From an uncultured Verrucomicrobiae bacterium (GTDB lineage: Bacteria; Verrucomicrobiota; Verrucomicrobiia; Chthoniobacterales; JAFAMB01), in contig CAVXLD010000009.1 in assembly GCA_963762565.1 (NCBI GenBank), positions 1 through 64,000 on the forward strand: a stretch of 64,000 bases of DNA, written 5' to 3'. Numbering within the stretch: the first letter of the stretch is position 1; the number at the start of each line of letters is the position of its first letter. Shown here in pieces: positions 30,002-35,099 of the stretch. A program made the position numbers and the translations under genes. Below the pieces are notes generated by a model, which saw only the letters and a program-made list of their open reading frames with translations, made no database searches and was not told the DNA's origin.

Positions 30002-30250
30002 GTGGGGCGATGCTCCCGAATGTCCGAAATGGGTTCGCGAGGCGTAGCGGCTTTATCTCTAGATATGATGCAACTGTACCGATGCGCTCGCCGAGCCGCG
30101 GCCCAGCGTGCGAATCTGTCGGCAGTCGACCCTCGCCATTATGGCACACGCTGGGTAACGGCTCGGCAAGCGCAACAGCGCAACACATCAGGTCTTTCAG
30201 GAAGTCGGCTACTCTGCGAGCCCTCTATGGACGATCGGGAGCCTCGCCCC
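30002..30250. repeat. Family A element whose right arm is interrupted by the IS110 element
   Basis: gtggggcgatgctcccga ... gccgagccg / acggctcggc ... cgggagcctcgcccc; the missing terminal (ct)accaa reappears at 31855-31861. Confidence 0.85.
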
Positions 30251-30359
30251 CCTATGGTGTTGTCAAGCTACCCAGCGTGTTTTTAGCGGTTTGTCATCTT
30301 TTGTAGAGCAACGTAGTTGCCAAAATTTTTAGTTCAGAGATCGAGCCGGTTTGCGACGG

Positions 30360-30545
30360 TTGGTACGTTTCCTCTTGTGGCTCATGTCTCCGAGCTCGAT
30401 TGGGACAAGGCAGCCTCCTATCCGGCCTGTCAGGGTTTGACAGCGCAAGATGCTCTATACGCATCGCTCAAGAGGAACGAGCGCGCCCAATCTACCAACG
30501 GGCTTTTAAAGCCCAGGGGCGAGCACGAGCGCGCGCCGTTCCAAA
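30360..30545 (-). ncRNA. Putative bridge RNA/seekRNA (boundaries approximate)
   Basis: Internal loop 30474-30542 with target-matching strands (30516-30523, 30492-30498); multibranched domain with junction match at 30415-30421. Confidence 0.75.
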
Positions 30546-30703
30546 GTCCAGAGTTAAAATGTTTAGTCTAGTGCTGTGTCAGCTTCTCCCTTAACCATGG
30601 GGCCTCTTTAGAGGCGCCAGCTTGCTCCTGTTTCCCCCGAACCGGGGTTTGGGGCAGAGCCCCAAGTTAAAACCCGAGTCTTCGGGTCACTTCTAAAATG
30701 GTT

Positions 30704-31810
30704 TTAGCCCTCGATCATGATGAGACCCAATTGCTGGGCAGTAATACGACCGGTTTGTAGCCGCCAGATATCGACGATCAGTTGCCGGCCGATGGCCACC
30801 ACGGCTTTTTTCTTCAGTCCTCGGTTAGAGCCCTCCAGTAGCTCACGCCATTTTTGCACCGCTTTATACTCGGGCTGGAAGAGGATCATCCGCCAGACCA
30901 TCTCGGTGATGATGCGCCGCAGAGCCGGTAGTCCCACTTTGGTGATTGCACCCAAGCGTTGGCTCTCTCCGCTGCTCCATTCACTGGGCACCATCCCGGC
31001 TAAGCAGCCGATCTTGCGTTCAGTTGAGTAAAGATTCCAATCCAGTACTTCAGCATTCAATTGCGCCAAGCTGGGAGCTCCCATCCCCTTTGGCCGTGGG
31101 CCTTGGTACTGCTTGGTTAGCTCTGCCTTGGCTTGCTCAATTTGCTGGTCTAGCTCGCGTAATATCCCAACCCAGCGACCAAGATGTTTTACAATCCAAG
31201 GAGCCACCCCCTTGCTTAAGTGCTCAAAAGCTTTGGGCCGCCACCAATTGCTCCAGCTCTGGTAGCCCTGGCTCAGCAAAAGGGAGTTGCCCATGACGCC
31301 GATGCGCTGGCGTTCTTGCACCAGCGCATCGTGCTGGCGACTTTCCACTCGAGCCTGCTCTTGAGCCTCCCTCGGTATTCTGACCAGTTGCAGCGCTTGC
31401 TCATTGCCATTGAGATAATTGCTCAGATCACTGGTTAAGGTTCGCGCATCAATTGAGTTGTTCTTGCCCCGCTTCCTCTTCTGCTCTCCGCTGCGGGGTG
31501 CACAGACCAGGCACTCAATCCCGCTTGCCTTTAACTGCCGATACAGCGAGTACCCCAGCGGCCCGGCTTCGTAGACCACCACCACTTCCTTGGCTTGCTC
31601 TCGCTGCTTCTCAACGTAAAGCAACAACGCTTCCTTGCTCCCGAATGTCTGGGCTACTCCCACAGCCCCGTTATCGATCTTGCGGGCCGCCTGATAGCTC
31701 TTTAGGTGCGCATCGACTCCCAGCACGATCCGGTTTGCCTTCGCTTCCTTTTGGCTGTTCTTTTCCTGGCTTACGGCGGTTGGTGCCGCCTTGAGTTTGT
31801 ATTCAATCAT
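30704..31810 (-). CDS. IS110-family transposase/bridge recombinase
   Basis: LGVDAH, VYEAGPLGYSLYR, KNNSIDA, AGMVPSEWSSG...GAITKVG, KKAVVAIGRQL. Confidence 0.93.
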   Translation of the reverse strand: MIEYKLKAAPTAVSQEKNSQKEAKANRIVLGVDAHLKSYQAARKIDNGAVGVAQTFGSKEALLLYVEKQREQAKEVVVVYEAGPLGYSLYRQLKASGIECLVCAPRSGEQKRKRGKNNSIDARTLTSDLSNYLNGNEQALQLVRIPREAQEQARVESRQHDALVQERQRIGVMGNSLLLSQGYQSWSNWWRPKAFEHLSKGVAPWIVKHLGRWVGILRELDQQIEQAKAELTKQYQGPRPKGMGAPSLAQLNAEVLDWNLYSTERKIGCLAGMVPSEWSSGESQRLGAITKVGLPALRRIITEMVWRMILFQPEYKAVQKWRELLEGSNRGLKKKAVVAIGRQLIVDIWRLQTGRITAQQLGLIMIEG

Positions 31811-31873
31811 TGTTTGTCAGGCTGCTGTTGATCCGGCAGCCTGACAACACAGCTCTACCAAGTGACAGCGCCG

Positions 31874-34719: not shown

Positions 34720-35033
34720 GTGATTGGTGATTAGTGATTGGTGATTGGTGGGGGCTCCACCCCCAAACAATCAACGTGCAAGGCCCTGTAAACGCGCCGA
34801 GCTGTGGTCTACCGGGGGGCCACGGCTCGGCGTGTTTTTAGTCCCGTTAAATGGTTGGTCGAGAGATGCATTTTTTCCTTGATTAAGCTCTGGGTCGTTC
34901 GGGAGCCTCGCCCTACCAATCACCAATCACCAATCACCAATCACCAATCACCAATCACCAATCACCAATCACCAATCACCAATCACCTCACCAATCACCA
35001 ATCACCAATCACCAATCACCAATCACCAATCAC
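34720..35033. repeat. Family A element flanked by inverted heptamer arrays (ATTGGTG)x~4 and (CACCAAT)x~16
   Basis: gtgattggtgattagtgattggtgattggtgggggctcc ... gggagcctcgccctaccaat caccaat caccaat... Confidence 0.9.
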
Positions 35034-35099
35034 CTCTCACTTCTCCCCTCCCCCCTTCCCACTCTCCACTTTCCGGTCTATTCTCTCTTTCTACTCAAA

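Follow-up and report, generated by a model that had tools for sequence, protein, structure and literature searches.

The locus described here raises two questions: how an insertion element comes to lie at the same point of the same repeat in every copy, and which strands are passed on when it moves. The window (the whole stretch of DNA that was analysed, 64,000 nucleotides from an uncultured Verrucomicrobiae bacterium) contains an insertion element at 30251-31856, including a CT at 31855-31856. The element encodes a 368-aa recombinase on the - strand (30704-31810), with D33, E81, N118 and D121 (DEND) and S280-G281. Its boundaries were taken from an empty allele of the locus: a contig of run X3 joined 30250 to 31857 with a CC core and without the CT, so that the target core is CC and the CT at 31855-31856 is part of the element. 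This is a single empty allele and run X3 may come from the same study as the window; runs X1-X4 belong to one study, possibly the window's source, and are not counted as independent support. The genome (6.1 Mb, 94% complete) contained four copies of the element, with at most 3 substitutions between them over the 1594 nt between the repeats. A REP end was the insertion point of all four, with position and orientation identical. This is very probably a recently active insertion sequence of the IS1111 type that moves by bridge-RNA-guided recombination, and we have high confidence that it works like an IS1111-group bridge recombinase.

The anatomy of the element, its copies and the empty allele were read directly from the DNA, as were guide-flank covariation, residue identity and purifying selection. 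The left target half CTCGCC and the target core CC lie at 30243-30250 (+ strand), and the element's own donor core CT and the right target half ACCAA at 31855-31861 (+ strand); both segments are the same in 4/4 copies. An earlier sequence-only reading had placed the element at 30251-31854 between duplicated 2-bp cores and had suggested checking further copies for CTCGCC/ACCAA junctions. The start and the junctions (4/4 copies) agreed with this. The end lies instead at 31856, and the core is not duplicated, the target supplying CC and the element CT. An unduplicated core was rejected as a novelty in itself, since PMC11187229 already assigns one copy to the element.

The right end opens with the right donor half CCTAT (30251-30255, + strand), which is complementary to the right donor guide and whose first 3 nt form the 3-bp terminal extension of that end. 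The 19-nt right subterminal inverted repeat (30254-30272) contains TTGACA on the - strand at 30261-30266. The left subterminal inverted repeat (31835-31850) has 16 nt in the window copy and 19 nt in intact copies. In the three intact copies the repeats had 19-nt arms with 17 complementary positions, and the ends extended 7 bp (left) and 3 bp (right) beyond them. The window copy is 4 nt short: its left-end remnant AGCT (31851-31854, + strand) stands in place of 8 nt. The longer left end was found in the other three genome copies and in contigs of runs X1 and X3 at the window's locus, so the short end, previously taken at face value, is probably an assembly error; a real variant is unlikely, though a private deletion may have produced it. 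The short end would abolish the junction -10 along with the matches to donor and handshake. GGGCCC upstream of three copies was considered as part of the element and rejected, because the empty inverted partner of the C1 copy has the same flank. In the window 453 nt of non-coding sequence follow the gene and 46 nt precede it; both the long 3' non-coding region and the subterminal repeats are those of the IS1111-type architecture proposed before.

Two further hairpins were recorded in the element. A perfect 12-bp hairpin (31814-31847) closely precedes the start codon within the left end and overlaps the left repeat; relatives have a different hairpin in the same place. It may damp translation from read-through transcripts. 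A GC-rich hairpin (30644-30663, - strand) lies between the stop codon and the bridge RNA; it occurs four times in the genome and is kept in many close orthologs. It was also present in other soil contigs, there preceding unrelated sequence.

On the - strand of the 3' non-coding region, a target-binding loop (30474-30542) consists of an outer stem, an internal loop and an apical hairpin. Across 34 ortholog RNAs 98.6% of cells in its stems were paired, with two-sided changes at 5 pairs; the structure was derived from the same alignment as this count, which favours pairing. Two-sided changes in the outer stem were as numerous in 0 of 500 shuffles. The left target guide, CTCGCC-CC (CTCGCCCC in the RNA string), lies at 30516-30523 (- strand). 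The right target guide, TTGGT-AG (30492-30498), forms one segment (30490-30498, - strand) with the target-loop handshake AT (30490-30491). When the 431-nt region was resampled 200,000 times under a Markov model, both guide words occurred together in a fraction of 9.5e-5 (about 1 in 10,000). Rfam returned only two sub-threshold hits. In the single-sequence MFE structure the two target guides were partly paired to each other; the open loop was seen in the ortholog consensus, in which the target loop is a self-contained 69-nt hairpin. The RNA string (30542-30474) and both guide positions had been given correctly by the sequence-only reading, and its proposed bridge-RNA layout was upheld by ortholog pairing and by guide-flank matches. 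Its suggestion that the region be folded was also borne out, in that the region was more stable than shuffles (z -2.9 over 447 nt; z -2.7 over 206 nt).

Neither the donor loop nor the handshake bases appear in that reading. After the target loop come, in order, the left donor guide, a hairpin and the right donor guide, with CT as the core. The left donor guide GCAT-CT (30448-30453, - strand) is identical, in the three intact copies, to the core preceded by the final 4 nt of the left donor half; it was assigned by this match, the donors being nearly invariant and leaving no covariation signal, and is the weaker assignment. The apical hairpin of the donor-binding loop (30425-30446, - strand) was present in the MFE structure, varied among orthologs and was absent from the consensus fold; RNAalifold on the orthologs did not recover the donor loop. 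The right donor guide ATAGG-AG (30415-30421) is followed by the donor-loop handshake GC (30413-30414), together 30413-30421 on the - strand. The target-loop handshake, AT or GT, faced donor AT in 22/22 parsed loci, one of them a misparse, and the donor-loop handshake G faces target C. Handshake pairs thus number 0 before exchange and 3 after it. When the ends were joined, right to left, the joint read TTGACA, 16 nt and a TG-extended -10 matching 3/6, and the spacing was 16-17 in 29/30 clade loci. A consensus promoter was not found in the linear element. The promoter formed at the circle junction is putative and its -10 weak. An end-to-end joint was not seen in contigs of three DNA runs (contigs drop rare forms). 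In a small share of one RNA run (X20), coverage fell on the neighbouring gene only and not on the element.

Junction cores were read, target side before donor side, at 96 distinct loci in which both ends could be parsed. They were CC/CT in 53, CT/CT in 36, CT/CC in 1, CC/CC in 1 and other in 5. The core in the left guide tracked that of the target, with CC on both in 6 loci and CT on both in 25. The bias of 53 to 1 fits copy-out and insertion of the top strand; unbiased staggered exchange of two strands over a 2-nt overlap would be expected to give about equal numbers of CC/CT and CT/CC. Copy-out and insertion by the top strand have been reported for CazIS110 (bioRxiv 10.1101/2025.10.25.684509), and those reported for CazIS110-1 predict the CC/CT pattern seen here; the evidence there is biochemical, and here it is a census of natural junctions. 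Single-strand excision of a top-strand type is described for IS621 (bioRxiv 2026.08.31.748434). We put a little short of an even chance on the proposal that a distinct DEND branch, mostly with a Thr nucleophile, joins sites of unlike core by transfer of the top strand only.

The same asymmetry could arise without top-strand-only transfer, if both strands were exchanged after cuts at matching positions in bottom and top strand, if mismatch repair were strand-biased, or if crossover fell one base into the core. The same junction bias would follow from flush cutting or from biased repair, final junction sequences cannot separate the two-strand and top-strand routes, and the structural papers favour two-strand exchange, with IS621 cryo-EM supporting a Holliday-junction route (PMC11208158, PMC13626964). 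The pattern at empty sites in five relatives was also weak (15 vs 1 matches, with 14 vs 26 in reversed-pattern controls). Against these readings, the donor guides read CT, and crossover after the first core base is excluded at the window's locus by the CC empty allele. Taken together they are a serious but less likely account. If top-strand-only transfer is correct, the 53-to-1 bias would be evidence from genomes that IS1111 elements transpose by top-strand copy-out, and matched donor and target cores would be dispensable for the enzymes; genome-editing designs currently match the cores of paired sites (bioRxiv 2025.05.14.653916). Unlike donor and target cores are a natural strand marker for the top-strand versus two-strand question.

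RNA expression, circles, catalysis and strand use were inferred from work on IS621, ISEc11 and CazIS110, and movement by top-strand transfer would then proceed as follows. The top strand would be copied out as a circle with the right end joined to the left end. The circle junction would make a promoter (TTGACA, 16 nt, weak TG-extended -10) and a donor site (left half GGCAT, core CT, right half CCTAT). A transcript running through the gene into the 3' region would give an RNA of about 140 nt, target loop first and donor loop second. The target loop would pair with a GTRG-type REP end and the donor loop with the circle junction. S280 would cut the top strands 3' of each core, and the gain from 0 to 3 handshake pairs after exchange would favour insertion. 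The target CC would be kept at one junction and the donor CT at the other, with the bottom strand filled in from the top. Throughout, the enzyme would act with Asn where the third catalytic Asp normally stands.

The part given here to the donor loop was set against the seekRNA model, in which the target loop alone works, the donor loop can be dispensed with, and the protein reads the ends by way of the subterminal repeats. An 82-nt RNA is enough for movement of ISEc11 (PMC11187229), target-loop-only RNA makes up 90% of CazIS110 transcripts (bioRxiv 10.1101/2025.10.25.684509), and the target loop here folds as a hairpin of its own. Excision and integration of CazIS110 nevertheless need the full-length RNA (same preprint). 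At the present element the variable fifth base of the right donor guide equalled the element end in 101/101 distinct RNAs (84 G, 15 C, 2 A), in parses that required the shared ATAG on both sides. That the guide follows the end through three states argues for its use, and we regard a dispensable donor loop as improbable.

The recombinase matched both IS110 domains, the N-terminal RuvC-like and the C-terminal Tnp domain. It scored 46.4 bits with PF02371, over the cut-off. With PF01548 (E 1.8e-6, 28.3 vs 29 bits) it fell just under the cut-off, as it did with NF033542 (134.7 vs 140). Its AlphaFold model had a pLDDT of 84.5, with low confidence over the Ser loop (275-291), and the best Foldseek matches were IS621 (E 7e-12) and ISCro4. 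HMM alignment to IS621 placed N118 on D102 and S280-G281 on S241-G242, the first stretch being low-scoring alone. The third catalytic Asp of the strict DEDD tetrad is Asn (N118), and the recombinase was accordingly filed as a DEND variant rather than a canonical member. N118 was kept in 120 of 121 close proteins (query counted twice); position 280 was Thr in 115 and Ser in 6 of them. In a FastTree tree of 152 sequences the 59 Asn-bearing tips formed one clade (support 1.0). Ser at 280 arises at five separate places in the tree, and in the loci checked its AGC/AGT codons are one step from ACC/ACT. The site was covered by 102 of 150 representatives at 50% identity; Asn was present in 12/12 of those with at least 44% identity and in 2/90 below this. 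Ratios of dN/dS were 0.17-0.34 in 10 pairs, which is purifying selection, and near-identical DEND copies occupied different guide-matched sites in two other genomes. The relatives came from assemblies of Verrucomicrobiota or Chthoniobacterales.

In IS621, D102A abolishes recombination, so Asn at this position could impair the enzyme; the role ascribed to D102 is a hydrogen bond to the Ser loop and not metal binding, which makes Asn there plausible (both PMC11208158). It was considered whether the DEND enzyme is inactive and a DEDD relative mobilises its copies in trans, given the loss of IS621 activity and four other Transposase_20 hits in the genome, one in a 445-aa frame (G000:C3:85012-85266). 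Those hits were too distant to appear in tblastn, and a motif scan of the 445-aa frame found neither K-T/N-D/N-x-x-D nor G-x-x-P...S/T-G. The conservation of N118, the single well-supported clade, the dN/dS values and the guide-matched copies in other genomes also weigh against an inactive enzyme, which we consider very improbable. Asn at a position where IS621 needs Asp tests whether the residue is structural rather than catalytic. In the open-access literature text there was no mention of IS110 DEND, phosphothreonine or D102N; sequence logos and an IS622 mutational scan (bioRxiv 2025.05.14.653916) may show Asn. The Thr nucleophile was discarded as a novelty: SG or TG at the nucleophile position of IS1111 elements has already been described (PMC11187229), and the window's protein has Ser.

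Some observations on more distant relatives were also made. P0132 and P0194 (30-35% identity) had Asn at the D102 position and Thr at the S241 position, and Asn representatives covering both sites had Thr in 4/4. A large DEDD group (L057-L063, L073-L076, L059, L060 and many other relatives at 34-42%) inserts directly beside GGTTAG on the coding strand, with flanks that we take to resemble integron attC ends. One genome contains L057, L058, L061, L062 and L063 as copies, and the three pairs compared were identical; these copies have Thr-Thr-Gly in the loop and no Ser.

By the descriptions in PMC11187229, the IS1111 elements ISPa11, ISEc11 and ISKpn4 share with the present element subterminal inverted repeats that leave extensions of 7 bp on the left and 3 bp on the right, a long 3' non-coding region with target guides and the lack of target duplication; they also have a junction promoter, which is putative here, and ISPa11 likewise has a REP target. 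The element differs in its repeats (19 bp, usually 11-13), in the Asn at the third catalytic residue and in the placing of its relatives in Verrucomicrobiota assemblies. IS621 and ISCro4/IS622 (PMC11208160, PMC11208158; PDB 8WT6, 9T56) have the same fold and Ser-Gly loop, likewise four guides with a 2-nt core, an AU handshake facing donor AT and a REP target. Identity to IS621 and ISCro4 is about 16%, the RNA here lies downstream of the gene, and D102 is replaced by N118. The IS621 handshake AU has one pair before exchange and three after (PMC13626964, PMC11208158), compared with 0 and then 3 here. The target core CC and donor core CT differ from each other here, whereas the second T is said to be almost invariant in relatives of IS621 (PMC11208158).

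The sequence-only reading had called this a divergent RNA-guided recombinase. Guidance by RNA is supported by covariation. Novelty is lower than that reading suggested, bridge RNAs having been predicted for 93% of the IS1111 elements catalogued (PMC11208160) and REP targeting by ISPa11 being published; large-scale mining of IS1111 bridge RNAs is under way (bioRxiv 2026.10.21.760802). The core finding is therefore ordinary for the field, since bridge RNAs and REP targeting of IS1111 are already known, and it contains no new mechanism. The DEND clade and the junction census go beyond the known systems and are of moderate interest.

The REP-like target had been proposed correctly: CTCGCC-CY-ACCAA occurred at 327 sites in the genome (208 CC, 119 CT), and 4/4 copies were inserted in it. 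A preference for CC targets within the genome was not significant (4/4 against 208/327 available, about 0.16). On the coding strand the repeat end reads GTAG or GTGG. Of 504 repeat ends, 340 were joined in 170 inverted pairs with the tag outside, at spacings mostly of about 200 or 250-280 nt. An inverted partner REP lay 198-240 nt beyond the right end in each of the four copies. In the window this is a degenerate end at 30006-30017 (- strand, 1-mismatch match), the inverted mate of the targeted REP. The inner palindrome of the dimer lies at 30083-30174, with 28-nt arms (30083-30110 and 30147-30174) that are 86% complementary. The roughly 170 inverted dimers with inner palindrome (window 30006-30250 and genome-wide) are presumably a REPIN- or MITE-like family. 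GTAG-tagged REP dimers (PMC3733652), in which the verrucomicrobium O. terrae is rich, have the same GTAG/GTGG end, inverted pairs and outside tag; reported spacings are 20-100 nt, shorter than those found here. A link to RAYTs was not found: twelve Y1 transposase hits were found in the present genome, and the 10 loci checked included one distant REP end and none closely flanked by REPs. A tandem array of heptamers (TCACCAA units) was noted at 34906-35041 directly after a REP end, and similar tails followed other REP ends.

For covariation across orthologs, as the sequence-only reading had suggested, 187 loci with a protein match were collected, some being the same place fetched twice. These gave 39 distinct loci with at least 44% identity and a parsable RNA, 36 of them with the right end. 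The left target guide was exact to its own flank in 26/36 loci and within one mismatch in 31/36; in the remaining 5/36 it was out of register. Over 22 unique pairs with 16 distinct guides, left guide and flank matched at a mean of 7.0/8 (null 4.87, maximum 5.91, 20,000 permutations); right guide and flank, over 20 pairs, matched at 3.5/5 (null 2.58, maximum 3.35). The loci are kin and the permutation values overstate significance. In the right guide the three core-adjacent bases matched in 18-20/20 pairs, against 5/20 and 8/20 for the two bases furthest from the core. Target guides thus followed their own flanks, as the donor base followed the element end. Direct recognition of the REP hairpin by the protein, with the RNA match a chance or captured REP fragment, draws on the abundance of REPs (327 sites) and can be set aside as scarcely credible, being contradicted by 16 different left guides, each ortholog matching its own flank, and by the 9.5e-5 chance of both guide words.

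Guidance by the RNA is therefore retained, and natural retargeting suggests that the element may be reprogrammable. The ortholog is well specified and ready for a plasmid assay: all four guides and the two handshakes are assigned, one empty allele is known, and the left guide has 16 natural variants. Among the relatives, the subclade L146, L028 and L147 seems to have a left guide read one base further on than elsewhere. The bridge-RNA region of L019 (G032:C560) looks rearranged, a portion of its donor-loop segment lying inverted ahead of the target loop. L015, L016, L018 and L028 share an extra 3' segment, absent from the window's element, with a palindromic GGGCCCC centre.
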